A stretch of 64,000 nt of DNA from Amoebophrya sp. A120 (taxonomy: Eukaryota > Protista > Dinoflagellata), in the NCBI GenBank assembly GCA_905178155.1, contig CAJINV010000012.1, positions 2,457,407-2,521,406 of the forward strand. The letters are read 5' to 3'. The translations under genes were made by a program, and so were the position numbers. This document shows positions 1,283 through 61,412 of this stretch, one piece after another; the first letter of the stretch is position 1, and the number at the start of each line of letters is the position of its first letter. Under the pieces are notes generated by a model. The model did no database searches. It saw only the letters and a program-made list of their open reading frames with translations, and was not told the DNA's origin.

Positions 1283-4200
1283 TTACTCGTTATCGCTCTC
1301 ATGAATGGCAGTCAACTGCTCGCCATTCAGCATGTCCTCGCTTTTTGACATGATCGACGTCGTCCCGTGATAATTACAGCTGTTCCCGGCTAGCATCTGC
1401 TCTACAGAAGTTCCAGTCGAAGCTGTTGTAGTTGTCACCTGCAACTCTAGCAACGAGTGCTCACTCCCGAGAATTCCGCCTGGACTGGAGCTGGGGGTCG
1501 CGGCGGTCTCTCCCGCAGACACATCCACCGCCGGAATGACGTATCAAATGCAAACATCCCTGGATGTCTGGAAACTTCCACTTGTGATGCAAGGAAGGGA
1601 ATAGGGCGCGCACTGTAATGCGCAGTCAAGCATGGCAAGTTTTTCCATGGTTCTGCGTTGCGTACCCCGCATGAGAAATAGCTGTGTTTTTGCATGACAG
1701 GCAAGAGGAGCTCTACTTTGTGGCCACGCAACACAGATTTCAGAGTCAGGCCGGGCTAGCATGACAAATCTCGTCGCAATCTCCCAGACGTCCAGGGATA
1801 TTTGCATTTGATACGACGGCTTTTTCGTTGAGAGTGCTGTCGTGGGTGTAGTTCATCAACAAATTATTGTCCCGGTTGTGCAATTATCCTGTGCAAAAGT
1901 ATCGCACTCGTAGTAATTGCAAACATGCATTACAAATCCAGTTCCTAAGGCAAATCCGCATTACAAATTTGAATTGCAATTTATATTGCAATTCAATACT
2001 AGGCATGCTGAGCCAATTTGTATTGCAATTTATACTAGTACGATGCTTTTGCATTTGATAGCAATTCATCGGCCAAGCAAGTGAGCCCCGCGACCGCCGT
2101 ATCGTAATCCGAATAGCTCCTGGGCGGTCCGACGATTGGGTCGGAGCCGAAGGAATCCACCTCGTCTCGGTCCTCGTCAAGCGGGGAAAGCAGCAAATCG
2201 TCCGCGGAGAGCGTTCCATGAAACAAGTCTCCATGCTGTCTTTCCGCCGGGGAGCGACAGGCCGCCGGGGAGCTACTCGAGGAGCACTTGGGGGGAGGGA
2301 AAGAAGACGAACAACCATGATCTGCTGTCATGATTGTGGGACAAGCAGGGCGCAACAGCTCCTGCATATCATCGTCAGTGGCGACATGATCTTCAACACC
2401 AGCAGCAAACGACCCGGACGACGACCGGGGTCCCGCTCCCGTACTAGGGCCAAAGGAGTTATTGTCATGCTGCATTAAACCTCCAAAGTCGGCATCAATT
2501 TCGTCGCCAACGTCCTCCATGATCTGTTGGTCCATGATCTCCATTTCCAGTTCGTCTTTCGGATTTTGTTCTCGGCAGTATGAGAGTGCACAACTCGACG
2601 TCCCCCGTCGTCCCGCTCATTTGTCATGCAAAATACCAAATCCACGACCCTTTGCCTCTTGGCACTTTTCGCATGACAAATTCTGGAAGCTCCTTAAACT
2701 ACAGCACTATATTCCAGGGTGGATTTGTCATGGCAAACCTGCATTCTTGCCGCCGCTTGTGTTGCTGTTTGTGCAAATAAAATGCAAACGAGGGCCGCGA
2801 GAGGGAGTTGTGCACTCATCTCATAGGCAGTGCTGAATGTCCATCTCGATGTCCTCCATCCGTCGGTCGAGTTCCTCGTTTTCGTCGCCCTGAAGGAAAT
2901 CAAGGAAATCGTGGCTGGTCGTGGGAAGTTGTGATTTGGACTCTCGAGGTAGACAAGTCCTCAGGTTCGCGTTGCTCGTGTTTCGACGCAGCTGCGGCTC
3001 TCCATCGAGGTGTTGTAGTTCGTTCCCAGACGACGTGCGCAATTTACTGGACGTGTTGATGCAGCTTGTCCCTGATGGTGTAACATTTATTTCCCCATCT
3101 TGAAGATCTTCCCCTCCCGCTCCACCAGCACCATCCGCCCTCCCTCCCTCGCTATTTCGCTGGCTGATCTCCATTATGCATTGCGAAAGTATCGCACTCG
3201 TATAAATGCATTACAAATTTTCTCAGCATGAGAAAGAAAATTTGTAATGCTGATTTGCCTGGAGCTGGACAAAGAAATTTGTAATGCAAGACCTGCATTT
3301 ATACGAGTACGATACTTTGCAATCCATATCCATCAACCGCTCGAGTTGCTGCTCCGGTGTGGAGAACTTGCTACTGTCCACGTCATATGCAATGCAAAAG
3401 CGTCGCACTCGTAGTAATTGGAATTGCAGTGTAAGTATGCATGACAAATCTCCGTTCCAAGGTAAAACTGCATGACAAATGTAATTTTTCATGCTGAGCA
3501 AATTTGTAATGCAATTCATACTAGTACGCTGCTTTTGCAATCCATACGTGAGGAAGCTTCTGTCCTGGGGAACTTCCAGAATCTTTCCTCTTCATCGGGG
3601 TTGCGCTGTTCGTGGTAGAAGTCGCAAGAGCATTTACATTTGTACTGTTCTGTGGCGTGGAGGTCTGGACGTTATTATTATTACCCCTTTGTGGTCCATT
3701 GTTCCCATTCACAGAAAAGGTTCCAGGCAACGGTGGGGGCAGGGGGTGGACGCGAGACTTTCCGTCCGTCGCCCCGTACTTCTCGCGAAGCTCCAGTTTC
3801 ATGACGCAGTGGAGGATGTACTTCCCGTAGGGAAACCGTTTCAAAATGTGGGTGTGTTCGCTATGGCGTTCTCAACTGTTACATTCTCAACCGTTACATG
3901 GATTTGTGATGCAAGAATGGGAAAAGTGAAAGGGAGGAGATTGCGCCTGTAGCATTACAAAATCCGTGCGGATTTAGGCGCTGTTTAGCCCTAGGCAAAT
4001 TTGTCATGCCAAGCAGCTTGATCGAGTGGATGATGATGGTGCTTCTGCATGACATCGGTGGTCTACGGGCAGGCTGTCCCGGTGGCGCTTTGGCCAATCG
4101 TACAGAGAAAAAACAAAAAATACAAGTTAGGTAGGAATACAATTGAAGGTTATGAATGAAGTCAAAAGTCGTAGAGACAGTATTAAAGTAGTTCCTACGG

Positions 4201-7200
4201 GCATGGTCACGATTGGGCAACAGAGGGTAGAGTCACGATTGGGCAACAGAGGGTAGAGCAACGAATTGTTACGCATCTATCCGCTGGTCAAGTACGAGGA
4301 AAACGAGAGCAGCATCGAAGAAGGGAAAGGCGCGCAAGCAGGGCAGCCCAGCAGCAGCAAAAATATCAAGACAAGAAGCAGACTACCGCCACCCGGGGTC
4401 CTACCCGACCGAGAACTGTACTGGTATGGGCCAACATACCATAAAAGGTACAGAAGAAGGGTAGGTGCTCGCGTAAAGAGAAAGATGACCAAACCTGGGT
4501 GCTTCTGCATGACAAATTCATGTAACAGTTGAGAATGTAACGTTTGAGAGTCTCATATTCGCGGAGTTTGGCAATCAGCTTCTTTCGCTCGTCGCCCTCC
4601 TATATCAAATGTAAAAGTGTCTGGGTCTGGAAACTTGTGATGCTGGGTGGCGTCTCATGATGAGGCCACAAATGCTGGCTCAGCATGGCAAGTTTCTGAG
4701 CTTCTAGGTGTTGCCTATTCTGCATGACAAATAACTGCGTTCCTGCATCACAGAAAAATGGAGCTCTTGGGTAACGTGCGTGACAGATTTGAGAGTCATG
4801 CCAGACAAGCATGACAAACATGCACTCTTCCAGACCCAGACATTTTTGCAATCCATATCCGAGATCAGGAGGAGACGCTGGGCCACGAAGTTACCTGTAG
4901 GAGGTTGTGGTTGAGGTTGTGCAGATGATGCAGCGCACTTAGACTTTTTCATCCCCATGCATCTTCACAAAAAGTTGTACTATCATGCTGACAAATTATC
5001 ACTTTATGCAGCAAAAATTCCAGCACAGATCATCCCTCATCATGTCCCCGTAGTCGTATTAAATACCGAACTTATCCTTCATGATTGTCAGTAGCGGGAT
5101 CTTGTGAACTGCAAAAGTATCGTACTCGTATAAATGCAATACAAATTATTTTCTCAGCATGAAGAGAAATGAAGTTTGTAATGCGGATTTACCTATAACG
5201 AAAAGATTTGTAATGCATGACTGCAGTACGAGTACGATACTTTTGCACAGCGTAAATCTTGTGCACATCCCGATAAGCCTGCAGCGTCGACCAGGTGCTG
5301 ACCCGTCCTATCAAGTACAAATATGTCTGGGTCTGGAAATTTCTGATGCTAAAAGGTGGATCAAGAAAACCCTTCCTTATGCAGGAAAGCATGACAAGGC
5401 TGCAGAACGCTTTCTCATGCGCAGTCCGCATGAGAAGACTGCGTTTTTGTATGACAAGAGGGGCTCCTGCGACTTTTGTTGGTCATGCAATACAGATTTC
5501 ACAGGAAAAATGTAAGAGCAGCAATACAAGTCCCAACTTTCCAGACCCAGACACTTTTGCAATCCATACGTCCGTTCGGCGTGCAAGTCGAAATTCGAGC
5601 GCTCATGTTCATCACACAGCTGGATGCTGGGCTGCCGCTTGTCCTGTTCATAAGGTCGAGATTGCTTTGCCGCAGACCACTGACCTGGTCGACCGCATGA
5701 TCGCCAGAAGGAGTCAACTCCCGGCGCCCGTTGTTCGGCGTGCACCGGCTGCTGGGAGGGAGATTTTGGTGCGGACCGGCGTCTAAATCAACATCATCAC
5801 AACTTTGCTGCGCCGAGTGAGCATCAACTCCACGACCGTCTTCGTTATTGTCGGGAACAAGCTGGTGCAGCTGTCGGTCGTGCGTAGAACCAGGGACGAG
5901 TTGTCCACCCGTAGAACAATTTTTCATGTCGTCACTGCCCAACAAGGCGGAGATTAGCTGCTTCTTGTGCCCGGAGTCGCCCTATGCATTGCAAATATGT
6001 CTGGGTCTGGAAGAGTGCAAGGCTTGTCATGCACATTTTGCATGACTCCTGATGTCTGTGATGCATGCTCTAGCATCGCAGATTTTGGGAGGGCTTCCTG
6101 ATGCCTATACTGCATGAGAAACGCCCCCTCGCCGTGGCAAAAACTGGACCTCTTCTGCTGATGTTCAACATGCAATACAGATTTATTGTGGAATCCAAAT
6201 CCAGCATGACAAGTTCCAACCTTCCAGACCCAGAGGACATATTTGCAGTTGATACTCCCTCCATCAGTGCCCGCTCCAGCGTGTTCGATCCGCAGCGGTG
6301 GGTTGCCATTTCCAGAACGTTATCGGCCAACGTGCTGATAATTGCGTCGCGATCCGAGGGTCGCCCGCGGTATCCTGAGCGAAAACGTCCCCACCCCATA
6401 GTCAAGATGGGAAACCTGCTACACAAATCAGCCAGCTTTTGTTGTTGCGCATGACAAGTTCTTTATTGGCGTCGTGGTGTAAAAATCCTGCTTAGCTTGT
6501 TTAGCAGCATCACAGATCTAGCCTCATTTTCTGATTGGAGCACTACAAATTCCAAACCACGACTAGAAAACGCTTGTCAATGGGGCTCCGCATGAGAAAC
6601 ATTTTGAGCATGCAGATTTGCATGACAAGAACTATGGAGTGGGGACGTTTTTACGTGGGATACGCGAGTCAGCATGTTTTGGACGACGTAGTTCCCGTAC
6701 TGATCTATATCCACAGTAAATTTCCCGCACACGTACAAATGCAGTCTCTGCATGACAAAACTTGCCTTCAATCCTAGTCCAGCATGACAAGTTGGACTCT
6801 GCAAGGTAACGAAATTTGTCATGCATTTTGTACATGTACAGGAAATTTACATTGCATAATCTAGAATCAGCTCGTAAACCTTGTCCTTCACGTAGTCCAT
6901 AATCGGGAACTTTTGCTCGTCCGCCCCGTGCTCGAAAATCCGCTGGACCACACGGCAGCCAAAGCAGTGCGTGATGAAGCGGTCGGTGTTATTCCGTGTA
7001 AAAACGTCCCCGCCCCATAGTCAAGATGGGGACTCGGCTAGACAAATCCACAAGCTTTGGCTGTTTTGCATGACAAATTTCGACTCGTAGTGTAGTGCTG
7101 TTTGAGCTATCTGAGCAGCATCACAGATCTAGTATATCATGCTGATTGGAGCATGACAAATTCCAAAAGACGATTGGAAAATGCTTCTCATCGGGCTCCG

Positions 7201-10200
7201 CATGACAAACAATTTCAGCATGCAGACTTGCATGACAACTCTGGGGTGGGGACGTTTTTAAATACGATAGGTGTTGCGGAGCACTGTGTCGACGAGGAAC
7301 TGGAACTTTTCCACCGGCTTCGTAAACTCGATCAGTTTCTGCAAAACGTGGTTCCCGTATGACAATGCACAACTCCCCCTCGCCCGCATTTGTATTGGTA
7401 TTGCATGAGCAGCAATACAAACGCCAGCGCCACGACTGGAGCCTGTGCATGACAAATTTACGTATGTGCCTGCTGTAGTACTGTTTGGGCTTTCGAAATT
7501 CTTCATGCAAACAGTGCCACAGTGCAACGACTGGGACTCTGGATTTGGGATTTTGCATGACAAATGAGGGGGAGCGGCGGGAGTTGTGCACTGTCATATC
7601 CCGTGCTGGTCCTCCATTAACACCGCCTCGTGCCCCTTCAATTCCGCAGCCAGGAGGCACTGCTGGTCAGACTGCGACACCTCGAAGGCCTTTTGAATCA
7701 CGCGGCAGCCGTGGCTGTTGTGTCGTGAAAGGGAGGTTTTGAGTCAATAATTGTTTCGCATTCTTCATGCACATGCGGCCGACGTTGTGCCTCGGCTCTT
7801 GCAAAATGTAGCGAACGCGGTTAGGCCCCTCGGTCATGATGCGCACTATCGGAAATTATAGCGAAGAAGAGCCCAAAGAATCAAAGACTGATTTAGACCC
7901 ATCTGCATGGGAGATCTAGCGGTAAGACAGCACTTCTCACCACGAGGAGATGGTCACAAAGTAAAGTCAGTGTCAGAATTATGTCAAACATATAGAAAAT
8001 GATTTGAGAAACAATTTTATGCTAAGAAAAAAAGTCGCTATTCATCAGTACGCGTGCAGCGAGAGTTTCAAACAGCTTCCCACGAGGTGCTCCGCCAGCG
8101 TTCGTTTCTGGTGGTTCAGCCCGACGTCGAAAAAAGCGATGATCACTTTCCCCGCAAATTTGTCCTTGCAATGCTCCACCAACTTTGGCAGCATCTGCAT
8201 CATGCAGTTCTGCAGGTCCGCGGGCTCGGATCTTTCGACAGAAGTTGAAGTCGTCGTGTGTTTAGAAGTATTCAAATTTATCTTGTTCTCTCTACTGTTG
8301 ATGCTTCTAGTAGTACAAGAACCATCGTCGTCTTTATTATTCTTGACCACGCCATCAACATAATTGTCATTCGTTATTTCCAAAGTAGTTGTAGCAGCGG
8401 ACAATGAATTTTCGTCCTCTGTCGCCGCTTTCAGCCGGTACAGGCACTCGAGAATCAAGTGCACCCCCATTGCGTCCTTGGCGAACTGCAGAAAAGGGCT
8501 GGTCCGGAGGCGGTCCTGCAGCAGCTCCTTCAGCGTGCAAGCCTTCCCCTGCTCTCGATAAGCGCGAAGCTGCGGACAGGCGTTGATGGGCAGCGGCGGA
8601 ATCTTCGCCATGGTTTCCAAAGACTGCTGGTACAATTGGGCGTTCACTGCGTTGTTACGCCGGTGGTACTCCGCCTGCGCGGCCGTTTGGTCCTGTCTCA
8701 GTCTCGTGTTGCGGTGCTCCTTATCGGTTTTCTGCTGGTACGAAGCCATCTTGTTCTGCAAAACTTTTTGCCCCAGCTGGTTTTGTATGCATTTTTGCAA
8801 AAGTACTATCGTATTATTTTAGAAGTGGAATTGGAAATTGCATTGCTCAGCATGATGTTGACAAATCGATGGATTTGCCATGGTGATCTTTTACTACATT
8901 TGAATTTGTAGTAATGCCATACTACCACGTAGGTACGATAGTACTTTTGCAATGCGTATCCTGGTATGCCTGGATCTGCTTGTAGTACTTGATGTAACTG
9001 TAGTTGCGGTGATCATGGTAGTTGTCTGGGCCGCGTTGATGGTTGTTGTTGTTGTTGGCGTACTGCTGGTGCATGTGCATCATATACTGCATATACTGAA
9101 ATCGGTTGCAACTGTTGCTCATCGCCTCCATGTGACGTTGCATCATCGTGGTCCCCGCCGAGTGCATGCGGTGCATCAAAGAACCGCTCATCGCGCACGC
9201 AGGAGCGACCCCGTGCATGTTGGGAAACCGGGTCATATGAAGCGGGTTGCACATGCTCGTGGTCGCCATGTTGGACATCATGCTCATGCTGTGGCTGGGT
9301 CCGCCACCTGCTCCGGGTGGTCCATTGTGGTGCCTGGTATTGTTTCCAGCGCCCCCGTTGTTCATCATTGTTCCCATATAAGTGCGACCCTGTTGTTGGA
9401 AATTGTCGCGGTTGTTGCTGAATCTGTTCGTGCCAGTATTGCTTCCAGCACCACCTCCTCCGTACATGCTATTCATCCTCTCATATGCGCTCTGCATCCG
9501 GCTGTAAGAGCCCGCCCCGGATGTCGATGACCCCCCACTCGCACCAGCTGCGGCACCGTGGCCATCGTTCATATTGTAGTTGCCACTCATGTTGAAATTG
9601 CCGCTCTGATGCTGAGCCCCACGATTTCCGTAGCCGTTATTGTAGTTCAAATTACCCCCGCGGTTCAACAAGTTATCATGATTGTTTCCTCCTCTGTTTT
9701 GGTAGTTGGCATGATGAAGATCTTGCGAGCAGTTATTATTTTTGAATCTGGAGGTTTGGTAGTTATTGAAAGCATTTGATGTTCCGATGTTGTTGTGCAT
9801 CTTACCTCCCCCATTGCCGTAAAAGCTGCCATGATTTTGATTGTTGCCGCCGCGGTTATTGTAGCCACAACCAGTATGGAACTGTCAGGATTGAAATTGA
9901 CAAAGTTGAAATGATTTGTCATGCATAAAATGGATGCCAGTCGGAAGCCCACTCATCAAGCGGCGCATGGCAAGTTTTCGTAGCACCGGAATCCAGTTTG
10001 TCATGCTGTTTGGTCACAGAAAACTGCTTTTGTCATGCTACTTTAGCAGCTCTATTTCAAACCCTAAACAGGCTCACAATCGGCCTCCCTTGCCTACTCT
10101 GCAAGACAGGCACTTTGTGGGTTGCATTTTATGCATCGCAAACTATGTCAACTTTGACGATTTCAATCCTGACGCCTCCATAACCAGAACCACCGCCATC

Positions 10201-13200
10201 TTCTCCGGCTCCGTTGTCGAGCCCCGGCGGGGTAAGCGGTCGGCCGCTGTTGTAACTAGCGCAGCTCATCGGGTTGTTGTTATTCATTGTTCCAGCACCA
10301 CCGTGGCTGTAGTCGCAGTTCTGGTTGTGGTTATTGTACTGCTGCTGGCTGTTGTAATTGTTCATCCCGTTACCATTGCCGCGCTGACTGTAGTTGTAGT
10401 TATTGTTTCCCATTCCCCCCTGCTGCTGCTGCTGCGGGTGGCCACTTTGGTGAAAGCTACCGCCTCCATAGTTGCTATAATTTCCGCGACTGCCCCCGCC
10501 GCCACTCGTCATGCGATCGAACGAGTGGTGGTTGGGGTTGCTGCCACCGCGGCCCATGTTGTACTGATTCATCTTCATCTGGTGCTTATTTCCACCACCC
10601 CCGTTCAACATGTAGGACGAGTTGACCCCGCCGCTGTTCACGATCATCGTATTGGTGCTCAAGCCACGCTGTTGTAGCTGCGAGTTACTCATAGCGGAAG
10701 CTGCGCCAGAACTGGTTTGCGCGATGTGCGAAATCGCCGGCCGGGTCCACTGCTTTGTCGGGTTTGATGTTCCAGTGCCGCTGTTCTGATGAAGCCCTCG
10801 TCCAGCATTCGAAGAGGTTGAGTAGCTGCTGTTCATCATCATGCTGTAGTTGTGGTTACCGGCCCTTTCGCTGTCTGTCCAGTTGCTTGAGTTCCCGGTG
10901 GTGTTGCGATTCAGCGCCTGCTGCTGCGGCCCTTGTTGTTGATCATGATCTACCAATTGCCCATACTGGAGCGGCTTTGACATAGTACCAGACGTCTTGC
11001 TATTATAGACGCAACCAAGCGTCGTGGCCGTGTTATGATGTTCCTCCTGGTTCATCATTGCATTCGCTTGTTCCGCAACACCTCCACATGAAATATCATC
11101 CGCACCACTGTTGTTCGACGACAACCCGACCTTGGTGGTCGTCTTGATCACTTCACTGGCGTGGCTTTTCCATTTCTGATCTTGATCAGGAAGATTCATC
11201 TCGGAAGATGAATTTGTGGTTCTCGAGGCATCGGCACCAGTCGTGCTCTTGGTAGTCGTGGTCGCGCTACCTGTTCCACTGTTGCGGAGGGACGAGGAAA
11301 ATGTGCCCACCTGGAAATCAATATGATTGCCGCTCTGTCTCGGAGAAAGATGAAACTACGATGAAGTCGCATTTTTCCACTGGTGCAGCAATTATCTATC
11401 GCATGATCTACTAGAACAACGAACCCATGTAAAGAAACGTTTCTTTTTTGTACCTGTTCTCCGGTCGTGTACAACGAAGATCCGTGATCCGCATAGTTCA
11501 TCTGCCCTGGCGCCGTCCACATCAACTGGTGCCCATGAAGATCTTCACCCTTTTGCCCATTGTTCCCATAATTCATCCCGTCTGGGACCTCCGAGCCGTG
11601 CATCTGGTGCAGCGCTCCGTGCTGTTCCGGGGTGTTCATAGCGGAGTGATACGCCGCTAACCGCTCAGCCGTCGCTTGGTCCACCACTGGCAAGTTCGCA
11701 TTGTGTATTGGTGTGTCAGGATCGAAATCGTCAAAGTTGTAATGCATAGAACCGATATCACTTGGGAGCCCACTTATCAACCGGCGCATGACAAATCTTC
11801 CGAGAACCGGACTCCAATTAGTCATGCTATTTGGGCACAGCAGACTGCTTTTGTCATGCTAGTTCAGTAGCTCTATTGCAAAGAAGAAGAACCCTAAACA
11901 GGCTCACAATCGGCCTCGCTTGCCATCCCAGCAAGACAGGCACCTCATGCCTTGCATTTTATGCATGCCAAATCGTTTCAACTTTGTCGATTTCTAACCT
12001 GACACGTCCATATTATGTTGAGCAGTTGTACTACTGTTGCGCATCATCATCCCGCCCCCTATTCAAGAAAAAAACACCATCGCAATCACTATTGCACATT
12101 TTTGCAATACAAAAATTTTTGTTATGCGCAAAAATGCATCACAGTCAAGAGTTATTGGCGATTTCCCTTTGTGTTTTTGCAATACAAGAAAAATTTGGCA
12201 TGCGAGAGAAATTTCTGATGCAAAACCTCCTACATGTGATTGTGATGGTGTTTTTTTCTTGGATACCCCCAGACGAGCTGTTAGTGTTACCCCGCTGCAG
12301 ATAATGTTGGCCAGCCCCGCTGTTTCTACTGTTGTACTGGCTTTGCCGGTGCGAGGATTGGTGGACCAGAGATTGCGGGATTCCGGTCCTGGCCTGTTCC
12401 ATAGCCGCTTGCTGCAGTCGCTGGTTGTGCAAGATCGCCGCCTGCGAAGCTGCGGTCGTTGCGGAAGAGGTTGTAGTTGTGATCGGTTGATGGGGGCCCG
12501 AACCAGCAGGACCCCCTGCTGTAGTTGTACCTCCTCCGAAATGAGAAGCTGCAAACGAGCCTGCTGCATGGTGTTGGTGGGCCGCTGCCGCGGCGGAGAC
12601 GAAGCCGGCGGTAGCGGTCCCTGCAGCAGCAGCCCCAGTAGTACTAGGAGCTCCCGCTACAAGCTGGTGACAACTCGGGTCGTGATAAATCATAGTAGCG
12701 GGCTGGTATTGGTACGCCAAAGTGGGGACGGCCCCGGTCGCCGCAGTTCCGGCGGTAGGGGTGGTTCCCGTTGCGCCGGCCGTGGTAACGTAAGCCGGGT
12801 AGATCAATCTTGGCTGGCTGTCAGCCGTCGCCAGGGCAGCGGTGGTGCCGGCGGTGCCCGGGTGGAGAATGGTCGTCGCCGCAGGGTACTGAAGTCGAAG
12901 CGGAAGCGTATATGTAATTGGTCACGTGGTCATTCCAAAAGAAAATGCTCTTGTTTGTTGAAAAGAACTTTTGTTCGTGCAGCTAATGCTATGCTTTACT
13001 TTTAGAACTACAATCACAAGAGTCTTCCCTACTACTTCATCACGACCTGTAAAATCCTATCATACCAACAGCGTCGCCCCAGCAGCTCCTGCGGCCGTCG
13101 CTCCGATCGGATTCCCGGCCGCATCCACGGCCTGCTCGTAACCGACAACATGCTCTGCGCCCGCCATCGCCAGCTGCGAGGGGTGCACCAGGTGGTAAGC

Positions 13201-13605
13201 AGCAGTGGCTGCACCAGTCGACGGGTCTACATGGACCAAATGCGCACCAGCGGCGGCCGCGCCCATCTGGCTGGCGTCGAGGTGCACGGCGGCGTGCTGG
13301 TACCCGGCCAGTGGCATTGCGGTCAGCATCTGGTGCTGACCGTGGTCGAGGTAGGTAGCCGCCGGCTGGTGCAGATGATGGGCCACTGCGCCGGGGTGGC
13401 TATCTGTGTTGTAACCGTGGTGGTCCATTGTCGCCGCAGATGTAGCAGATGTGGTGCAAGAACTACTACCTGATGCTGCTAGCAGGAGGTTATGCTTGTT
13501 GTACTGCTGTTGTTGCTCTATCAATAGCTGCTGATCCGCGTCCGCAATGTCCGGAGAACTGGTTCTGGTACTTACGAAGGCTTCCGCGTCCGGGTTTAGG
13601 TTCAT
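1283..13605 (-). CDS. Pumilio/PUF-family RNA-binding protein, multi-exon, with N-terminal PAM2-like motif and long N/Q/G/H low-complexity regions
   Basis: Joined exons give PUF repeat signatures (FAKDAMGVHLI, CKDKFAGKVI, YGNHVLQKLIE, DQYGNYVVQNML, THRCGSNTLERAL, KDKFGNFVAQRLL) and the C-terminal LKRFPYGKYIL cap. It starts MNLNPDAEAFVS. Interrupted by 18 TIR elements and several GT-AG introns. Exact ends uncertain. Confidence 0.85.
1542..1813. mobile_element. TIR introner-like element (family B variant)
   Basis: TATCAAATGCAAA..TTTGCATTTGATA; flanks tgacg/cgacg; removal +5 nt gives in-frame EKAVVPAVDVSAG. Confidence 0.9.
1885..2060. mobile_element. TIR introner-like element (family A, TGCAAAAGTATCG)
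   Basis: TIRs; DR gcaat/gcaat; removal +5 nt gives in-frame ADELHNRDNN. Confidence 0.92.
2579..2825. mobile_element. TIR introner-like element (family C, TATGAGAGTGCACAACTC)
   Basis: TIRs; DR ggcag/ggcag; removal gives in-frame QHCREQNPKDELEMEIM. Confidence 0.92.
3175..3328. mobile_element. TIR introner-like element (family A)
   Basis: TIRs; DR tccat/tccat; frame restored (ERLMEISQ). Confidence 0.92.
3386..3546. mobile_element. TIR introner-like element (family A)
   Basis: TIRs; DR cgtca/cgtga; frame restored (KLPHVDSSK). Confidence 0.9.
3862..4557. mobile_element. Enlarged TIR introner-like element (family J) carrying a nested insertion
   Basis: Ends TATGGCGTTCTCAACTGTTAC..GTAACGTTTGAGAGTCTCATA; DR ttcgc/ttcgc; frame restored (KLREHTHILKRFPYGK). 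Confidence 0.88.
4038..4514. repeat. Nested insertion bounded by a 17-bp direct repeat, with an internal ~26-bp tandem duplication
   Basis: GGTGCTTCTGCATGACA at 4038-4054 and 4498-4514; GTCACGATTGGGCAACAGAGGGTAGA twice near 4206-4258. Confidence 0.8.
4603..4857. mobile_element. TIR introner-like element (family B, TGTCTGGGTCTGGAA)
   Basis: TIRs; DR tccta/tccga; body nearly identical to 49810-50061. Confidence 0.92.
4895..5066 (-). other. Canonical GT-AG intron in PUF gene
   Basis: TTCG|GTATTT...CTACAG|GTAAC joins the PUF repeat KDKFGNFVAQRLL. Confidence 0.85.
5103..5254. mobile_element. TIR introner-like element (family A, degenerate ends)
   Basis: TGCAAAAGTATCGTACT inverted pair; DR gatct/aatct. 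Confidence 0.85.
5309..5568. mobile_element. TIR introner-like element (family B)
   Basis: TIRs; DR cgtcc/cgtcc. Confidence 0.9.
5983..6254. mobile_element. TIR introner-like element (family B)
   Basis: TIRs; DR cgccc/ctccc. Confidence 0.9.
6371..6662. mobile_element. TIR introner-like element (family D, AAAAACGTCCCC)
   Basis: TIRs; DR cgcgg/cgcga. Confidence 0.9.
6708..6858. mobile_element. TIR introner-like element (family E, TAAATTTCCCG)
   Basis: TIRs; DR atcta/atcta. Confidence 0.9.
6990..7269. mobile_element. TIR introner-like element (family D)
   Basis: TIRs; DR ggtgt/ggtgt. Confidence 0.9.
7358..7598. mobile_element. TIR introner-like element (family C)
   Basis: TIRs; DR tcccg/tcccg. 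Confidence 0.9.
8786..8958. mobile_element. TIR introner-like element (family A)
   Basis: TGCAAAAGTACTATCGTA inverted pair; flanks ttttg/tcctg; frame restored (AYQDQLGQK). Confidence 0.88.
9875..10182. mobile_element. TIR introner-like element (family F, GTCAGGATTGAAAT)
   Basis: TIRs; DR accag/accag. Confidence 0.9.
11311..11453 (-). other. Canonical GT-AG intron in PUF gene
   Basis: CAG|GTACAA...TTCCAG|GTG joins TTGEQ to VGTFSSS in frame. Confidence 0.75.
11706..12012. mobile_element. TIR introner-like element (family F)
   Basis: TIRs; DR ttgtg/ttatg; body similar to 9875-10182. Confidence 0.9.
12060..12265. mobile_element. TIR introner-like element (family G)
   Basis: TATTCAAGAAAAAAACACCATC..GATGGTGTTTTTTTCTTGGATA; DR gcccc/ccccc. 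Confidence 0.9.
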
Positions 13606-44815: not shown

Positions 44816-45110
44816 GCGGCTAAAGGGCTGACGGCGGGCCGGCGTCCTGGACGCCGGACCGCAAAAGGCGTTAAAGCGGCGAGGCCGCTAGGGCAAGCGC
44901 AGGCGCGGCAACGCGGCTAAAGGGCTGGCGGCGGGCCGGTGTCCTGGACGCCGGACCGCAAAAGGCGTTAAAGCGGCGAGGCCGCTAGGGCAAGCGCAGG
45001 CAGGCGCGGCAACGCGGCTAAAGGGCTGACGGCGGGCCGGCGTCCTGGACGCCGGACCGCAAAAGGCGTTAAAGCTGCGAGGCCGCTAGGACAGGCGCAG
45101 GCGCGGCAAC
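44816..45110. repeat. GC-rich tandem repeat, ~98-bp unit, 3 visible copies
   Basis: GCGGCTAAAGGGCTGACGGCGGGCCGGCGTCCTGGACGCCGGACCGCAAAAGGCGTTAAAGC... repeated. Confidence 0.9.
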
Positions 45111-46962: not shown

Positions 46963-48661
46963 TTTGATCATTCAGGCTCTTGTGCGAGATGATGTGATGA
47001 AATAGCAATGAAAAGGATTGATTTTTCGATAAAGCGGCACTTGTTTTATGAAATTTTTCCTGATCTTAAGCGTGCGCGAAGGGAAAAGGAAAAATTAAAA
47101 ATGCAAATAGTAGGGGGCGAGGGCGACAGCAAAAACTTATTCAGCTGCAGCTGTTAGCACAAGACGACCTCCCAGCAGAAGTTGTCGCGTTACCAGAAGT
47201 AGACGCGCTAGTAGAAAGTGCTTGTTGTTTTTTTTTCTAAGGTTTTAAAAACAAGGTCGTGTAAGAAGTTGGTCGTCAAACGGTAAAGACGGATCTCAAC
47301 TTGATTCAAACTTAAGGGTAAGATCTAAGAAAGTGGTCAGACGTTAGGGCGGGAACTGTTACTGTGGGTTGTAGTAAGGAGCAAGGATGTGCAGGTGCAC
47401 AAGAATTGCGAGCCATCTTCATCAAAGAGATGCAGTGCTGACCGACATACACGATAGATGTTTTATGTTAATGTTTCTACTTCACGAAAACAATACCAAA
47501 CTGAGCCACGAAGTGTGCTCTACTTTGTGTTTCGTTGTTTTCAGATTCAGACACATCTCACCGACCAGGTATAGGTTTCATTCTGGAGTCAAATTGAGTA
47601 TCCTACTTAGACCCTCCAAGAAATGATCCACCGAGATGATCGTCACTGTTGAGCTACTGTCTCGACGGAATGTTCTTGATTTATTCAGTTTCACTGACTT
47701 GAAACAATTTCGATCCATCGCATTTTGCTTTGCTTTCACTTCTGATCCACTACTAGCTTTATTTTCCATGTATGTTGATACCACGACCACGCACCGAGGC
47801 AATAAAGGTGGACCGGGACGACGAGATGTATCAGTACAGATATCGCTCCTCTTTCACTTGTTTATGTTTTTCTGTTTCATCCCTCTTGTTTACCTTCTTG
47901 ATCTTGGCCGACCGAGTTTCAAATTGAACAATGATCTTACTTATATAACTGTCGCTGCTCGTCCTCGAGATGAGGTTTTCGTGTTGGTGAAGATGCAGAA
48001 CGAAAAAGCGACAGAAATAATTATCTTCAAGATAGTACACTTACACTACATCTACAGCAGGCGCACAGAAGTATTTATCAGAATGCAGCTGCTCTGACGT
48101 AGCAAAAATTAGGGTCCTTCTACAGTGCAAGTGCTTTGGGCTCTACGCGGAGACTCATTTTTCTCTTACGTGCTTTACCCAATAGAAGAGCTCGTCTTGT
48201 CGTCTAATCATGATGGGGGCAAAAGTAAACCAGGTGGCACAACACTCGCAACGACAACGAAGTAAATAATGAAACACATGAAAAAACGTATAAATATAAA
48301 GGAAAACGAGACGTCGGGATGTCCATGTCGTGCAAGTAAAAAGCTAAAAAAGAATCGGAATGTAAAAAATCAAAAAAGAAAAATTATGTAAATGCTGACG
48401 AGTTAAGACAATGACAAAGAGGGCAAAACGACCCATGCTGCCGCAAAAGCAAAACTGAGAGCGAAAGGCTACTACTTACGTCATGCGTAGGACAACTAAA
48501 GTATAAGAAAAGGTAGACCTTAATCACAATCGCACTGCTGACGTATTCTCTTGCTATCATCATGAATGTCTACTTCCTTCTTTCCGCCAAAAAAAGTTGG
48601 TATCTCCTGTTTGTCGCCTCCTCTTCAACGGATAAATCCCGCCGGTCAACTTCATCTACAG

Positions 48662-54357: not shown

Positions 54358-55964
54358 GCTGGTTGGTGGTTTTTTCGATGTACGCGCTACAATTCTTGCG
54401 AAGCAGGTATAAGAAGATTTTTTTACGAATACTCACTTAAAAAACGGAAAGTGGAAGCAAGGAGGAGCAAAATAAATGTGCGGCTTTCGCTTTCTTAGTA
54501 CCAAGTCAAAGATCCGATTTTTCTTTTTTTTAAAAAAAAGCGACGTGCGAGTAACAACACCAAAGTGGTAGTTACAACTGCAAGTAGAATTGTTCCTGCG
54601 AAGATGTCGAGAAATAAGGTCATAGAATTTTTGTGTCGACTAGTACCACATCGTACATCTGGAAACATCGTACTTGTGCAAGCGGAAGATGACACGACGC
54701 TGTGACGACCACGGACGATGGGAGAAGAACGAAGTTGCTAGTTTTAGGAGCGGAGGCGGACGATAGGAAATAAGCTGAAGCAAATAACGGAAGTTCGTCA
54801 GCACGATTGGGTGTACGACGGTGGTGCACGAGTATGTATGCTTACAACATCGTTCTACAACTACAATTTCTTCATCCTGGGTGTTTACGATTAAGAAATA
54901 GCCGAGCTCGCACCTGCGCCTCTTCGCTACTAGTAGTTGTGAACTGCAAAATAATCATACATACCCGTCCTCCTGCTATTACAAATTCTAGCACTTGCGG
55001 CTAACAATTGTGCCGCTACTGACACTCACACTGTGCGACATCAACGTGATCTGTGAATATAGTGAAAGGCGACGTTCTCGGGAGGGCGAGGCAACTCTAT
55101 GTTTATTTCATTCAACACCTGGCGCCGCATGAGGACCTTCTTCTGCCCATCATGGATCATTTGTCTATTGTTTTTATTTTTGATGCGGATGCGAGGTGGA
55201 ATGAACGTACTTAAGTAGTGTAAAAACGCGGGTAAAAATGAGATTTGTTCTCCAATGATCTTGCAGCTCCAGGACGAATGGATACGCACAACTTCGACAA
55301 TATCTCCATCTCGTCCTCTGCGCCAGGCAGCAAGGGATGCCCACTGCTTCGTCTACTTCGTTGGGAGCGTCATCTAATATGATTCCACTACCACGACCAT
55401 GAGGGGAGGTAGTGCCCCCACGGTTTCATTCCCTGGTGGAACCGCTTAGAAAATACTCTGGGTAGAAAAAAAAAATATGTTCAAAAGTGCAAGCAAGTTT
55501 ATCATGGAGACCCCCTTCATTCGGTAAAGGGTAGCTGTGAAGGTACTACTTAAATAGGAATGCAATTGTCTGTAGAAATTTGGTGAATAAACAAAAAAGA
55601 AAAACGCTGTTTATTTAAATTCGGAAAAGCCAACTGGCGCGAAACTTGTTTGAAATCAAAAAAACCTTGACGGCAAGTGCAACTAAGAAGTGACCGAGTC
55701 ACTTCGAGAATTACGTCTACTGTGAAAGATCATGGATGCGTATGCTTTATTTCGGAGTGACTTTTAAATTTAAAAACTCTGCAGAAACGAAAACGAATAT
55801 GTAGATGATCATGATTAGATATGGTAAACAAGATGTGTGAGTAGTACCAACATGAGTTACACTTCCGTTTGGCTGTCCTCCCACCGCTCGCGATAAGTTA
55901 TCAAAGCTAAAGCTTGCTTCCTCTTCTCCTACTGTGTGTAGGTGTACTTGGTGTGGTTACAACG

Positions 55965-58900
55965 TCAGTCAAAGATGACTTCCCCGAACTGCAAAATCAC
56001 TGCAAACGACTTCCGCGGCACGCGCACCTCCTCCAAGCTGACCTTGTCGTTTTTGTCCCGCGGGGGAATGTATCAACTGCAAATCATGTGTCTGGGTCTG
56101 GCAAGAATTGGATTTGGTGTGATCTGCAGCTACTCTTCGATCAACATACATTGTTCTGTATTGCATGAGCAGCAAAAGGTACTCAGGTCAATATCGCCGC
56201 CCGGAAAGGACATTTCTCTTTCTGTTTCTCATGCAGAAAACTAAGCATCATCAAGCTCTCGCGAAAGCTGTGAATATGCTACTAGAGCATGCATCAGCAT
56301 TATAGGCATTCTCGTGGGTCATGTAAAACGTGCACGACATCAAACAACTCTCCCAATTTGTATCCAGACCCAGATACATACTTCCGCAATGGATAGCATG
56401 GGATCCGCGATATCGTAGTTGTAAAAACAAAGACTCCGGTCAAATGTTGCGCTCTCTTTCCCCATGTTGTCGGCATTCCCGCTCGTCGGGTTCTTTTTCT
56501 TGTACACGTCAACTTTCACGATGGATTTGTCTTTTTGGACTTGTTCCTCGGTGCACTGCTTGTTTTCGCCACTGGTGTCCTCTACGTCCCCATGCACCTC
56601 GTTGCGCTGAAACATCCCCGCACACAAGTCCGCGCTCCCCTCTTCATTCTCCTCGGAAATCGCCGCTTGGAAGCATTTTGGTTTCTGATCGGTGTTCCCG
56701 CCACCGGAACCCGAAGCGGAAGAGATCTTACACACCCATTCCACCGCTTGTTCTACCAAAACATGGGCGGCGCCGTGCTCCGAGAAGGCTTCGTCGTCAC
56801 CTTCTAAAATGTGCTGCTCCAGCTTCGGCATCCTGTGCAAAAGTACCGCACTCGTACTAACTTCTGATTGCGGTCAAGCATGACAAATCTAGTTGTTAAG
56901 GTGAACCCGCATTACAAATTCAATTATTTGTGATCGTAATGCTGAGCTAATTATTTGTATTGCAAGTTATACTAGTCCGATACTGTTGCAATTCATATTC
57001 GGAAAGCGACAGTCTCGGTTCGCGACTTCGGCGAAAGACGTGAACGAAACTTTGTGTAGGGGGGAGAAGCTGTTGTTTTCCTCGCCTGTCATTTTGCTTC
57101 GTCTAGTGCTGGTTCTCCTGACGTTCCGCCGGCGCGGCATTTGATTTTCATTTTCTTGTGCGGCGGCGCTTCTTGCTGCACCAGCCGGTGGAAGGAGGAG
57201 TTTCTTTTGTGGATTTTTTTCATCAACGGTACTACTATCCAGAACTTCATCGTGTTCGTTCTCTTTCTTTCCCATTTCCACGAAAGCCGCGGGCGCGCTG
57301 GTTTGGCTGTCGTAGTTCCAGACCTCGGTGTGGGCCTCGTACTGTTGCTGAAGGTCTTTGCAGAACGCCCTCAAGGGCGTCAAACCATTGCTGTTGAACT
57401 TCTCGTATGCATTGCAAAAGCATCGTACTAGTATAATATAGATCGCATCACAAATTTTTCATTCAAGAAACAAAAATGAAATTTATAATACTGATGTCCC
57501 TTAGTTGATGGATTTGTCATGCACGACGGCGATTCGTACTAGTACAATGGTACTTTTGCACTGCATATCTCGCAATACGGTGGCGTGACGTCCAACACCA
57601 AATAGTACTTGCAGCACCCGACTCTCTCGCTCGCGTACCCGAACTCTTGCAGCGAGATGTAGATCATGATGGACTCCTTGGCGATGTAGTACGCGTTGTT
57701 CTCGCAGTAGCCGTAGACGCAGGTCCCCACCTTCTCGTCACCAAACACCGCTCGTAAATCCGCGATGCGGTTCAGACAGCCTTGCTTGTCGTGGTCGCAG
57801 TTGGGCTTTCTTGTCGCCGTGGATTGCCGCGCCGCGTACTCGTCGCCCAGACCAAACATGCTGTGGCTGAGTTCGTGCGCCGCGGCGTCAATGCCCTGAT
57901 CCATCAACGTGATGGTCGCCGCGGACAGCCAGGAGTAAGCAGCCCCAGCCCAGGAAACCGCGTCGTTGTGGACAATCAAGTAGCATCAAGTGCAAATATG
58001 TCTGGGTCTGGAAATTTGTGATGCTTAAAATGTGCATGATGAAAAGAACTTCCTCATGCAGGAAAGCATGACAAGTCTGCGCAACGCTTTATCATACGAA
58101 CTCCGCATGAGAAACTGCGTTTTTGTATCATGACGTGAGAGGCTGCCACATTTGTTGGTCATGCAATACAGATTTCACAGCCACAGGAATGCAAGACCAG
58201 CATTACAAGTTTCAACTTTCCAGACCCAGACAACATATTTGCATTTGATAAGTAGCTCATCAAGAAGCCGTGCCCGCACTCGTGGCGCGCGACCGCTTGG
58301 AACACCTCGACTTCGCAGAGCAGCAACGTGGATTGCACCTTGCACAGCTGTGTCAACTGTAAAAGTGTCTGGGTCTGGAAGAATCCAACTTGTCATGCTG
58401 ATTTTGGATCCTAAAAAAATCTGTATTGCATGAGCAGCAAAGAGAGTCCAAGTTTTGCTACACGGCAAGAGCATTTGTCATGCGGTATAGGCATCAGGAA
58501 GCCCTCACAAAATCTGTGATGCTAGGGCATGCATCACAGACATCAGGAGTCATGCAAAATGTGCATGAGAAACCTGGCAATCTTCCAGACCCAGACATTT
58601 TTACATTTTATAAGCTGCCCGTGGTCTTCCGCTGCCTTTTCGTTCACGTAAAACATGTTCAAGCCCTCGTTCTCGTCGGCGTTGAACATGGCGTAGCGGT
58701 TATGCAAGAAAAAAAACTGTGTAAGTGTAAATCTGTGATGCAAAAAACGCAAATCAGTTACACTTGTCATGCTGGAAGTGCGTCATAGACGTGTTTCGTA
58801 CGTGTTTTCACGTACAATCTGCGCATGACAGGTTTTTTCTGTAATGCAAAACGAATTTGTGATGCTGCTCTTCCTACAAAGTTACACTTACACAGTTTTT

Positions 58901-61412
58901 TTCCTGGATAGCGGTTCGTCAACTCGCGGTAAATCCGTTTTGCGTGGTTTTTCCAGCTCCCATTCGAGATTTCGCCGCTGCTGAAGCCGGAGGGCAGGAA
59001 AACCACATTGATGCTGTCGGATTTCGCGCGGTGCTGCGACAAAATCTTGCACTTGCTGTGGGAATCGTCGAAATTGTTTCGGTTTTGTTGTACGACTGCG
59101 TTCGAAGATGTTGAAACTACCGGCGCCGGTGCGGCGGCGGAAGCGGAAAACTGCTGCACTACGGGGGGAGGAGGTGTGGTGGTACTATCCTCACACGCGC
59201 GTAATCCTCCGGCCGTGCTGCAGTCGGTTTTGCATTTGGAGTTCTGGGCGCACATCTGATATCCATTCGGGCACACCTTGCGGCCGCCGTGGGCATTGCA
59301 ACAGCTCCAGCCCTCGAGACCGACGTTGCAGACCGTGTTGTCCCCGCAAAGCATTTCATTCGTGTCCAAGGGCACCGGCGGATCCCAGGGACACTGCCAG
59401 GGACACTGGAGTTTTTTCTCCGACGGACAGGCTGGGTTCGAAGTTGTGGTGGTCGTAGTCGTAGAGGTTGTTGTGCTAGTGCTAGCAGTTGTCGTTTGAG
59501 TTTCCTCGTATTCATCCTCATTATAGTCCGATTCCGAGGAACTTCCGTAGTCGCTGCTCTCGCCGTTAGCACTGGGCAGATCAGAGTTCGTGCCATAATC
59601 AGAAGTGTCTTCCTGGTCACTCGTAGCGCCCCCGCCCGCCGCGGAAGTAGATGACATCATTTCCGTATCCAATAAAAAACGTTGTAGGTGTAACTTTTTT
59701 GGCGGAACAGCATTACAAATCTGGGTGACATGACAGCAAAAACCTGTCATGCGCAGATAGTATGCGAAAACGCCCTGTAATGGGCCCTACAATGCATGCC
59801 AAGCATGACAGACGCAATCATCTTGCATGTTGCGCATCACAAATTTCCACTAGCAACGTTTTCTTCTTGGATATTCCGGACACTTCCGGACCCCGCCATG
59901 TCCCTCGTTGCAGCCTGTCTCCGCTGGAAGCATGCAGCAGAAGTCTTTTATGCATTGCAAAAGTATCGTACTAGTATAAATTGCATCACAAATGTTTTCA
60001 AGAAGAAAAATGGAATTTGTAATGCTGATTTACCCAAAAAGGGATATCTGTCATGCATGATCGCAATTACTACGAGCGCGATACTTTTGCACAGGATATC
60101 TTTTCCGCCCGCGCAGTCGTTGTCGTACGCACACATGCCGTGTTATGCAATACAAATTTCCCGTACATATACAAGATGCATCACAAATTTCACCAATTTA
60201 AAGCGTGAAACTTGTCATGCTAAACGAGGACCGGAGCCAAGTTTTGTCATGCAGGGACCGCATTTCTACGTGTATTAAGTACGGGAAATTTACATTGCAT
60301 ACGTGTCCCAGTGGGCATCGCGCCCGGCCGCCGTGCGAGACGCAGGCGTCCGCGTTGGCCCAGTCTTCCTGTTCTTTGGAAGAAGAGTGGGGGTTTTGCA
60401 CCGTCCCGTCGTTGCATTCCATTTCGTACTCGTTCGTTGTCGTCCGGACTTCGTTTTGCAGCGTCAGAAAGGGGCAATTTTTCGGGTGGAAATCCTCGTT
60501 CGTGTTGCTCTCCGACGTGCTGCGTCGGCGGCGGCGCCGCCCGGTGGGAGTGCTGGCCGTCTCTGTGGAAGTAGACCGACGCCGCCCGTCTCGCCGCCGC
60601 CCGTCGCGCCGTCTGCCATCGCGTCGTCGCCGACGGCTGTCCTGGAGTTCCTGTTCTTCCTTCGAGTTTCTCTCGACCATGGAGGATGACGAGGATGTTG
60701 TAGCGCTCATCTCACTTCCCGGGGTGGAGTGGTCGTCTTCATAATCATGAGCCTCGTTTTCAACATCTTGTTCACCCGAAGAAGATGGCACTTTTTGCGG
60801 TTCAGTCTGATGCTGATCTGCTACAACGTCGTTGTCCTCGTCGCCACCTGGAATTTTCGTCGCCTTCTCCTCCGGTAGTTGTAACACCCCAGAAGATTCG
60901 CTCCTGGTTTTACTGGAGTCGCCAGCTGCTGCCACTTTCTGTTGTTTCCGCAACTGCAGTAGCGTACTTTTCGGTGCACCTGGTTTAATATTTTCGTGTT
61001 GACCTGCCTGTTTCTTTTCAGTGTTTCGGTTTTTCGCCAGCAAGCTCTGCTTTTCTTTCTCAACAACATCGCTTGCCGTGGCCGTGGTAGCGGGTGCAGC
61101 AGCTGGTGCGATGAAAGGCTCCGGTTTAATGTTCTCCTTCGCCTCTTGTGCTTGTGGATCTCCTCGTCCCTCGGCACCATGGTTCATGATCGCTGCCGGC
61201 GCCACCTTGGCCGTCTTGACATTCCGCTTCAGCAGGTTCTTCGGCGTGGCCACGAAAGCCTCCACACAGAAAATTGCACCTTGGCCGCCGTTGCCCAGCA
61301 TCCTTCTGGCGACCTCCTGCTGCGTCGCCAGGACGAGCAGGATGAAAGCGGTTCTCTTCATCGCAGAAGTAGGTCCCATAGGACCTTCTACGGCGCTGAA
61401 ATAGGACAACAT
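55965..61412 (-). CDS. Secreted zinc metallopeptidase, M64-like, with two Cys-rich domains (paralog 2)
   Basis: MKRTAFILLVLA signal-like stretch; SINVVFLPSGF; AAHELSHSMFGLGDEY; C-terminal VRVPRKSFAVILQFGE matches paralog 1 LRVSRKSFPVILQRGE; 9 TIR elements. Confidence 0.8.
56071..56395. mobile_element. TIR introner-like element (family B)
   Basis: TIRs; DR gaatg/gcatg; frame restored. Confidence 0.88.
56829..56997. mobile_element. TIR introner-like element (family A)
   Basis: TIRs; DR ttcgg/ttcgg. Confidence 0.88.
57406..57567. mobile_element. TIR introner-like element (family A)
   Basis: TIRs; DR tctcg/tctcg. Confidence 0.9.
57984..58250. mobile_element. TIR introner-like element (family B)
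   Basis: TIRs; DR agtag/agtag; body similar to 5309-5568. Confidence 0.9.
58351..58612. mobile_element. TIR introner-like element (family B)
   Basis: TIRs; DR agctg/agctg; body similar to 51950-52211. Confidence 0.9.
58701..58910. mobile_element. TIR introner-like element (family I)
   Basis: TIRs; DR gcggt/gcggt. Confidence 0.92.
59666..59873. mobile_element. TIR introner-like element (family I-related, inverted)
   Basis: TATCCAATAAAAAACGTTG..CAACGTTTTCTTCTTGGATA; DR ttccg/ttccg. Confidence 0.9.
59949..60098. mobile_element. TIR introner-like element (family A)
   Basis: TIRs; DR tcttt/tcttt. Confidence 0.9.
60144..60301. mobile_element. TIR introner-like element (family E)
   Basis: TIRs; DR cgtgt/cgtgt. 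Confidence 0.9.

Follow-up and report, generated by a model that had tools for sequence, protein, structure and literature searches.

Results

The window, i.e. the whole stretch of 64,000 nucleotides that was analysed, holds seven complete gene models, and three exon queries were 100% identical to Amoebophrya sp. A120 proteins. As a first-pass annotation of the letters had stated, repeated elements interrupt every one of these genes; all of them, and all features given below, lie on the minus strand. The gene of a PUF-domain protein (P0005, 2266 aa; 1286–13605) contains 18 elements, all of which are removed at element + 5 nt (1542–1813, 1885–2060, 2579–2825, 3175–3328, 3386–3546, 3862–4557, 4603–4857, 5103–5254, 5309–5568, 5983–6254, 6371–6662, 6708–6858, 6990–7269, 7358–7598, 8786–8958, 9875–10182, 11706–12012 and 12060–12265), together with GT-AG introns at 4895–5066, 7715–8051, 11311–11453 and 12889–13065. 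The gene of P0002 (1874 aa, no Pfam hit; 17446–31839) has GT-AG introns and 28 elements (17750–17978, 18022–18279, 18592–18768, 18823–19067, 19202–19456, 19520–19834, 20456–20731, 20797–21036, 21106–21255, 21368–21532, 22140–22284, 22325–22635, 23428–23714, 23792–24097, 24418–24570, 24825–25078, 25115–25323, 25413–25675, 25900–26129, 26215–26375, 26768–26974, 27127–27382, 27608–27775, 27880–28085, 28130–28403, 28488–28688, 30363–30517 and 30924–31219). Eight elements and seven GT-AG introns interrupt the gene of P0004 (576 aa; 33197–37886; elements 33300–33540, 33606–33847, 34561–34818, 35279–35517, 35921–36188, 36515–36664, 36973–37103 and 37510–37664), and four elements that of P0003 (184 aa; 45388–46971; elements 45434–45612, 45830–46100, 46236–46547 and 46609–46858).

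P0002–P0005 were the only annotated proteins used, and the other three genes were judged by restored frames or Pfam. The 3′ part of a Brix-domain gene (38780–40805) regains its frame on removal of three elements (38988–39339, 39431–39755 and 40050–40300), with Brix matches on three exons. An M64-peptidase-domain gene (48665–54432) has a restored frame of 1126 codons and nine elements (48694–48966, 49201–49364, 49488–49750, 49810–50061, 50971–51195, 51227–51500, 51576–51895, 51950–52211 and 52735–53046). Nine more elements (56071–56395, 56829–56997, 57406–57567, 57984–58250, 58351–58612, 58701–58910, 59666–59873, 59949–60098 and 60144–60301) interrupt a gene with a restored frame of 1219 codons (55968–61580), which gave no Pfam hit on five exons. 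The PUF, Brix and M64 domains read from the sequence earlier were confirmed by Pfam. Elements and canonical introns do occur together within genes, as 18 introns of the GT-AG type were mapped, with GTA donors in 18/18. Two P0002 gaps, whose borders are not resolved (29439–30223 and 21795–22090), lie outside this set.

A scan blind to direct repeats (DRs) returned 77 TAT...ATA inverted-repeat candidates in the window, compared with zero to two in five dinucleotide shuffles, and a 5-nt DR with at most one mismatch flanked 40 of the 50 non-overlapping candidates. The resulting catalogue comprises 78 elements (18,625 nt, 29% of the window); a 79th, 46609–46858, which had first been counted among 15 canonical introns, was added later. 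DR identity has its sole peak at 5 nt (90%, against 24–32% at 1–4 and 6–10 nt). Of the 78 DRs, 48 match perfectly, 21 differ at one position and nine at two, i.e. 69/78 have at most one mismatch. Nine multi-copy families account for 63 elements and the other 15 are singletons. Exact TAT and ATA termini, which had been ascribed to each element, are found in 67/78 and not in the rest. The elements are 130–350 nt long with unrelated interiors, their inner stem is well paired at inverted-repeat positions 9–15, and no intergenic elements were found in the 64-kb window. With terminal inverted repeats, a fixed-length target duplication and no coding capacity, they have the anatomy of MITEs or TIR DNA transposons; as regards a transposase, the longest element among 148 other loci measures 972 nt. 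A motif recurs inside the elements on both strands at a spacing of ∼31–32 nt, which suggests a putative DNA-binding site. Many contigs of a DNA-like sequencing run (X1) diverge from the window exactly at element base 1 (26 at 1885, 59 at 21106). For an empty-site comparison, none of the 148 loci was orthologous to the window.

At all 58 junctions within P0002–P0005 (57/57 of the catalogue plus 46609) the element and 5 nt are lost, in agreement with the net removal proposed earlier, and long frames were restored only on removing element + 2, 5 or 8 nt. A 6300-nt transcript-like contig from run X3, which is taken as RNA-like by a guess and has no RNA record, skips six P0002 elements and lacks exactly 1509 nt, the sum of the elements and 6 × 5 nt. 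The raw RNA runs X9 and X10 placed only 7 and 4 reads on the window and give no evidence on the elements. In contrast to the X3 contig, the DNA-like contigs of run X1 retain the elements; they are unbroken through 18592–18768 and through 8786–8958, the latter within a contig continuous over 7545–9903. As regards the proposed check for element-free genomic DNA, this one DNA-like run keeps the elements and none of the joints listed for it (15 of 697) is an element + 5 skip. Sliding the borders brings only 3/78 elements to GT/GC-AG, which bears out the description of their ends as non-GT-AG. The further statement that no sliding yields an AG acceptor holds at 2579 and 1885 but not in general, because 38/78 elements can reach some AG.

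The position of the cut within the repeat was then expressed as the number of upstream repeat nucleotides kept (the register). For 20/20 informative junctions the sole common solution keeps 4 nt (register 4): over 19 junctions, register 4 fitted 19, registers 3 and 5 fitted 14 each, and registers 2, 1 and 0 fitted 13, 9 and 3, and the held-out junction at 46609 also gave register 4. On the gene's strand the intron therefore reads N-TAT...ATA-NNNN for either element orientation, with 1 nt taken before and 4 nt after the element, and the repeat left in the mRNA is a 4+1 hybrid of both DR copies. Deletion of 'one DR copy', as previously described, is correct in length but not in register. At 46609–46858, where the DR has three mismatches, register 1 would give perfect GT-AG ends, but only register 4, with its GT-TA ends, agrees with P0003. 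Likewise, DR mismatches at positions 4 and 5 leave only register 4 at 45830–46100 (P0003; CT-GG ends, no canonical bias) and at 27608–27775 (P0002; ends by chance GT-AG). Canonical options at other registers were passed over at 20797 (GC-AG) and 46609 (GT-AG), rather than drawing the junctions to nearby GT/GC-AG pairs; at register 4, GT-AG ends occur in 2/78 window elements and 8/278 elements from other loci.

As read from the ends of their pieces, the RNA-like contigs keep the upstream base at DR position 2 (3386), position 4 (5983) and positions 3 and 4 (8786–8958, an X3 junction). Family 1 rules out register 1 in both orientations (3386 versus 21368 and 36515), which indicates that the register follows transcription. 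The lower bound on the register comes from gene models and RNA-like contigs, and the upper bound (≤4) from annotation-derived proteins only, at six junctions; these proteins are genome letters chosen via transcript alignments, by a pipeline that favours long frames. An in-frame-stop test at other loci was uninformative (one stop, at register 1, with 56 mismatched repeats among 269). The phase-0 share at register 4 (28/57 in the window, 128/269 elsewhere) was not counted as evidence, since target-site composition could cause it.

Conservation of the terminal bases was assessed over 356 elements, i.e. the 78 of the window and 278 from other loci (333 minus 55 with a weak strand call). Intron position +2U varied in 0/356, against 11 variants at its pairing partner, and A(-7) in 2/356, against 15; +3A was present in 354/356. 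The exceptions among the 278 were two at +3 and two at -7. The asymmetry was noticed post hoc in the window (Fisher P = 0.002) and was replicated in the 278 (P = 0.0012), where +3 on its own was not significant (P = 0.29). Because the partners of +2U and A(-7) drift, base identity appears to outweigh pairing. Covariation of +1 with -1 did not reach significance (pooled P = 0.076; control pairs did at least as well), and that of +1 with -1 or -2, nominal in the window (P = 0.03), was absent in the 278 (+1/-2, P = 0.37). No branch-site consensus was found ahead of A(-7). A sense excess of one 5-mer in the window (31 versus 7) was not replicated elsewhere (41 versus 40), nor was any other 5-mer strand bias, sense and antisense folds were equally stable, and G-U wobbles had no sense bias. 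For one element, folding was no more stable than in its shuffles (z = -0.69), and Rfam gave no match at gathering score in the window.

Discussion

We consider it rather probable that a relaxed U2/U6 spliceosome excises the elements from pre-mRNA and would need neither G+1 nor AG to do so. The N-UAU at the intron start would be read as the donor, A(-7) would be the candidate branch point, and the 3′ site would be set at a fixed distance from it, while the inner stem, from inverted-repeat position 9 onward, may clamp both ends together. Catalysis by the spliceosome and branching at A(-7) are predicted steps of this scheme. The spliceosome normally needs a G·G or A·C pair between the intron ends and an A at -2 (PMC8283771), and neither is conserved in the A120 elements; of the features of U2-type introns, they lack GT/GC...AG ends but have the +2U and +3A of the donor. 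As these two bases are shared with the canonical donors here, they speak for a relaxed spliceosome no less than for the putative separate, dedicated machinery of the first-pass annotation. In A120, 83/89 spliceosomal proteins and the U2, U4, U5 and U6 RNAs are present and U1 was not found, according to Farhat et al. 2021 (PMC7789003). In their Table S4 the nine leading motifs of A120 all carry NT donors and the nine of A25 all carry TT; given that the A25 repeat starts with TTA, +2U and +3A are likely shared with A25. Strains AT5 and Kv use GT-AG.

A non-spliceosomal RNA cut-and-ligate route, euglenid-like or by an endonuclease and a ligase, that measures its cuts as 1 and 4 nt away from the stem and releases a linear or circular product is possible but, to our minds, doubtful. 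The free intron end bases, the perfect GT-AG option ignored at 46609, the well-paired inner stem and the failure to find U1 would all suit it, and in euglenid introns, which come out as circles, the stem is offset in a similar way, at +4..+6 with -8..-6 (PMC11282704). Yet conservation falls on exactly +2U and, for the most part, on +3A, the bases shared with the canonical donors here, and the pairing partners of the conserved bases drift, which would be unexpected for a stem-reading enzyme; for a tRNA-type route, direct repeats presumably could not form a bulge-helix-bulge site. Self-splicing of a group II-like kind, in which the stem and an A bulging from it close to the 3′ end would be used, is the least credible reading: in group IIA introns 4 bp separate the branch A from the pair of the first and penultimate bases (PMC8283771), which corresponds to -7 by our count, but the elements are short, their interiors are unrelated and +1/-2 covariation is absent in the 278. 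With no Rfam hit either, they have neither the multi-domain fold of group II introns nor the bulge-helix-bulge of tRNA-type introns.

That the splice points truly vary within the repeat, the 4+1 register being an annotation artefact, is improbable. The Fig. 3 legend of Farhat et al. calls the splice borders variable and unknown, and our upper bound derives from annotated proteins only. Against this, the 20/20 junctions span four genes and include some with no aligner bias and some with a bias elsewhere, three RNA-like contig ends agree, and the Table S4 NT donors fit the register. No more credible is programmed DNA elimination at some life stage, in the manner of ciliate IESs, which had been put forward alongside RNA-level removal. 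The transposon anatomy and the spaced motif that suggests DNA binding would favour it, and the DNA evidence comes from one DNA-like run and 15 of 697 joints. However, X1 contigs pass unbroken through two elements, the listed joints show no element + 5 skip, and the register and terminal conservation track the gene's strand and not the element's orientation; furthermore, Farhat et al. treat the elements as RNA-seq-supported introns.

A fixed register would have a simple consequence. Since 1 + 4 = 5, a new insertion would leave no trace on removal, in any orientation or reading phase. This would account for how coding sequence came to be invaded by elements that may have spread through a cut-and-paste or integrase-type transposase with 5-bp target duplication. 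We give even odds to the broader idea of splicing without terminal dinucleotides, in which the symmetric TAT/ATA ends supply donor and branch point, a count of seven bases from the A sets the 3′ cut, and any insertion with a 5-bp target site duplication (TSD) is instantly an intron; if no lariats form, the same geometry would describe a stem-measuring RNA cut-and-join machine. A single register makes exact predictions: the branch base, the bases that a reporter must keep and the placement of junctions in annotation. It would also show to what extent the spliceosome can do without its end rules (G+1, AG), and by what means a transposon becomes harmless inside coding sequence.

The window elements are the introner elements that Farhat et al. 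2021 (PMC7789003) described in the marine parasite Amoebophrya sp. A120, in line with the mention of Amoebophrya introners in the first-pass annotation. They share the host, TAT followed by ∼7 variable nt and at least AAA, the 5-nt DR, the families, absence from RNA-like contigs and non-GT-AG ends. The published introners have an inverted repeat of TAT, about seven variable bases and an A run, direct repeats of 3–5 nt (5 bp in the Fig. S19 legend) and RNA-seq support, and they occur, as here, in many families mixed with GT-AG introns within genes. Non-canonical introns make up more than 60% of those in A120, and their removal is described as an open question both there and in a 2024 review (PMC11282704). 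What differs here is the single register at 20/20 junctions, and that +2U and A(-7) are conserved in a strand-specific way. The literature searched gave no paper that fixes the register, and it could be present in figure images of Farhat et al. (Fig. 3, S19–S25), the Gozashti 2025 datasets or Roy et al. 2023 (Curr Biol). The accessible text of Farhat et al. has no mention that we found of the internal motif with 31–32-nt spacing.

Euglenid nonconventional introns likewise have inverted repeats that join their ends, TSD-like repeats, non-canonical ends and a likely MITE origin, but their stem is offset at +4/-6 and they are released as circles (PMC11282704), whereas the A120 stem is at +2/-5. 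Introns of Giardia and Trichomonas resemble the elements in a V-TATG donor with a variable first base and a 3′ site fixed from the branch A; the Giardia donor VTATGTT tolerates variation at +1 and its branch point is fused to the 3′ site at a fixed distance (PMC6679479). Unlike the A120 elements, these introns have retained both a consensus at the branch and AG as their last bases, and they are not transposon-like (PMC6679479). The non-canonical introns of Fritillaria borealis and the TIR/TSD introners of Aureococcus, Micromonas and Symbiodinium are MITE-derived, are spliced by the U2 spliceosome and draw their splice sites partly from the target duplication (PMC11282704, PMC9860276, PMC13326754). 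All of these use defined dinucleotides, whereas in A120 no such fixed letters stand at +1, -2 or -1. Ciliate IESs are also short transposon-derived inserts removed with one flanking repeat copy, in a symmetric, DNA-level process; in A120, by comparison, the DNA-like contigs keep the elements and the cut is strand-asymmetric.

Element catalogue and identity

A scan blind to direct repeats returned 77 TAT...ATA inverted-repeat pairs in the window against 0–2 in shuffles, and 40 of 50 non-overlapping candidates carried a near-perfect 5-nt direct repeat (DR), demonstrating that the TIR-bounded insertions described in the first-pass annotation are real. Its estimate of about 75 copies in about 10 families was borne out by a curated set of 78 elements (29% of the window; nine families and 15 singletons), and a 79th, 46609 (named, like all elements here, by window start coordinate), was detected later. 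The DR length spectrum of the 78 had its sole peak at 5 nt, with no mismatch in 48, one in 21 and two in 9. Sliding to GT/GC-AG ends was possible for just 3/78. All window genes lie on the minus strand and the families occur in both orientations; all 79 elements fall within coding frames, with none found in the intergenic stretches of the window.

The system is already published and known in this strain. Amoebophrya sp. A120 proteins matched three exon queries from the window at 100%, and P0005, an annotation-derived database protein, matched the window's PUF gene (1286..13605, minus strand) exactly. In agreement with the proposed identity, the sections and legends available from Farhat et al. 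2021 (PMC7789003) describe A120 introner elements whose sequence opens with TAT, then seven variable positions and AAA, and which carry direct repeats of 3–5 nt (5 bp in the Fig. S19 legend) whose positional preferences are reported in section 11 and the Fig. S23 legend. The Fig. 3 legend calls the splice sites "variable" and the border unknown.

Motif GCA[TAC][GTC]ACA, present in both strand orientations, had a density of 13.6 per kb inside elements; the density was 3.8 per kb across 15 mapped introns, 0 in 4 further introns and 0.33 per kb elsewhere. Same-strand pairs spaced 30–33 nt numbered 50/186 in the window versus 6.3 expected, and 231/932 in loci of a separate assembly, counts that are inflated by related element copies. 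This spacing, about three helical turns, suggests a putative DNA-binding protein.

Elsewhere, an unspliced contig of the RNA-like run X3 at 15292-15959 had a depth of 743, the highest among pieces listed, with no frame of at least 130 aa and no Rfam match. Upstream of the PUF gene, a ~30-nt unit that bears no relation to the elements is repeated in a cluster (16400-16900), in direct as well as inverted orientation. Satellite-like repeats with a ~98-nt tandem unit (42750-45110) surround an N gap (44111-44815) and include an 86-nt hairpin (43557-43642) that starts with TAT and lacks a direct repeat.

Removal register

Long frames were restored only when an element plus 2, 5 or 8 nt was taken out. 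Within P0002–P0005, the database proteins of four window genes, element + 5 was lost at 57/57 catalogued junctions, the length that the first-pass annotation had given. Element 3862-4557, oversized by a ~460-nt insert flanked by two 17-nt copies (4038, 4498), is still excised at element + 5.

Where DR copies differ, the product reveals the register k, the number of upstream-copy bases retained. Among 19 informative junctions, k=4 was compatible with all 19 (k=3, 14; k=5, 14; k=2, 13; k=1, 9; k=0, 3), and 27608 and 45830 were compatible with k=4 alone. Both 1542, whose outcome was recorded before protein retrieval, and 33606, chosen as a test, agreed with k=4. In these gene models, the intron is therefore N-TAT...ATA-NNNN, which fits the donor motifs in Table S4 of Farhat et al. 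2021 (PMC7789003; top nine all NT in A120, all TT in A25). For family 1, k=1 was excluded in both orientations, and so the register follows transcription.

Conserved positions

In the window, terminal variants were confined to the third base at the sense 5′ end (5 cases) and to the outer two bases at the 3′ end (6 cases), an asymmetry spotted post hoc (p=0.002). The replication sample, obtained by pattern search, comprised 148 loci from another assembly (records JACKZZ01...), in which the window's families recurred with best matches up to 97% identity. A symmetric detector (window recall 54/78, zero false calls there) found 333 distinct elements in these 485 kb, the longest being 972 nt (L065:4787-5758). 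A codon model, right for 64/66 in the window, gave 278 a confident strand, and the asymmetry was replicated in these (p=0.0012). Across 356 pooled elements, intron position +2U had 0 variants versus 11 at its pairing partner and A(-7) had 2 versus 15, while +3A (2 versus 6) was not significant. Stem pairing was weak at repeat positions 4–7 and strong from position 9 on. Canonical donors of the window began with GTA in 18/18 cases.

Alternative explanations

The first-pass annotation had also allowed excision from DNA. In a 6300-nt contig of X3 (RNA by the tool's guess), two exon pieces are separated by 581 nt where the genome has 2090 nt between them; the missing 1509 nt equal six elements (1479 nt) plus 6 × 5. 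Contigs of X1, a DNA-like run with even coverage of intergenic DNA, pass unbroken through elements 8786-8958 and 18592-18768, which, with a register that follows transcription, argues against that option. With 15 of 697 joints listed and rare forms dropped by contigs, DNA loss at another life stage may occur; overall, we consider DNA elimination very improbable. Raw RNA runs X9 and X10 gave 7 and 4 window reads and carry no information here.

The register might instead be an annotation artefact: P0002–P0005 are genome letters picked using transcript alignments by a pipeline that prefers long frames, and the upper bound, k of at most 4, comes from these proteins alone (6 junctions). Against this, held-out 46609, where three DR positions mismatch, was fitted by k=4 alone even though k=1 would give it perfect GT-AG ends, and a GC-AG option at 20797 was also passed over. 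X3 piece ends gave k of at least 2 at 3386 and at least 4 at 5983 and 8786, assuming the tool's leftmost joint placement, as seen at perfect repeats. An artefact is thus highly unlikely, as is self-splicing. The main rival, a non-spliceosomal system that measures the stem, is a tentative possibility.

Proposed mechanism and comparison with known systems

We lean, by a modest balance, towards a relaxed spliceosome that would read N-UAU as donor, branch at A(-7) and cut seven bases beyond it, with the inner stem keeping the two intron ends together. Judged from sequence, A(-7) is a candidate branch point. Counting against a spliceosome, the elements lack an intron-end pair, an A at -2 and a branch consensus, and conserved positions show a few exceptions. 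As for how they spread, a DNA transposase is suggested by the TIRs and by the constant 5-nt length of the duplication; no autonomous copy was found.

No report of the fixed 4+1 register or the +2U/A(-7) asymmetry was found in the literature searched (Roy et al. 2023, figure images and datasets lay outside its scope), nor any mention in the available text of PMC9860276, PMC12005148, PMC11453091, PMC12787238 and PMC13326754. What the analysis adds is not a system: it is a constant cut position plus a mechanism that can be tested, which gives the published question of the border exact tests.

Available text on these and related systems offers parallels. Gozashti 2025 (PMC12130899) describes A120 TIR elements with LTR-integrase-like frames. 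The stem-measuring rival is modelled on euglenid introns, which are released as circles (PMC11282704). For a relaxed spliceosome, precedents are Giardia spliceosomal introns, with a VTATGTT donor and a branch at fixed distance (PMC6679479), and a red alga that splices without U1, where a role of +3 is described (PMC8283771).
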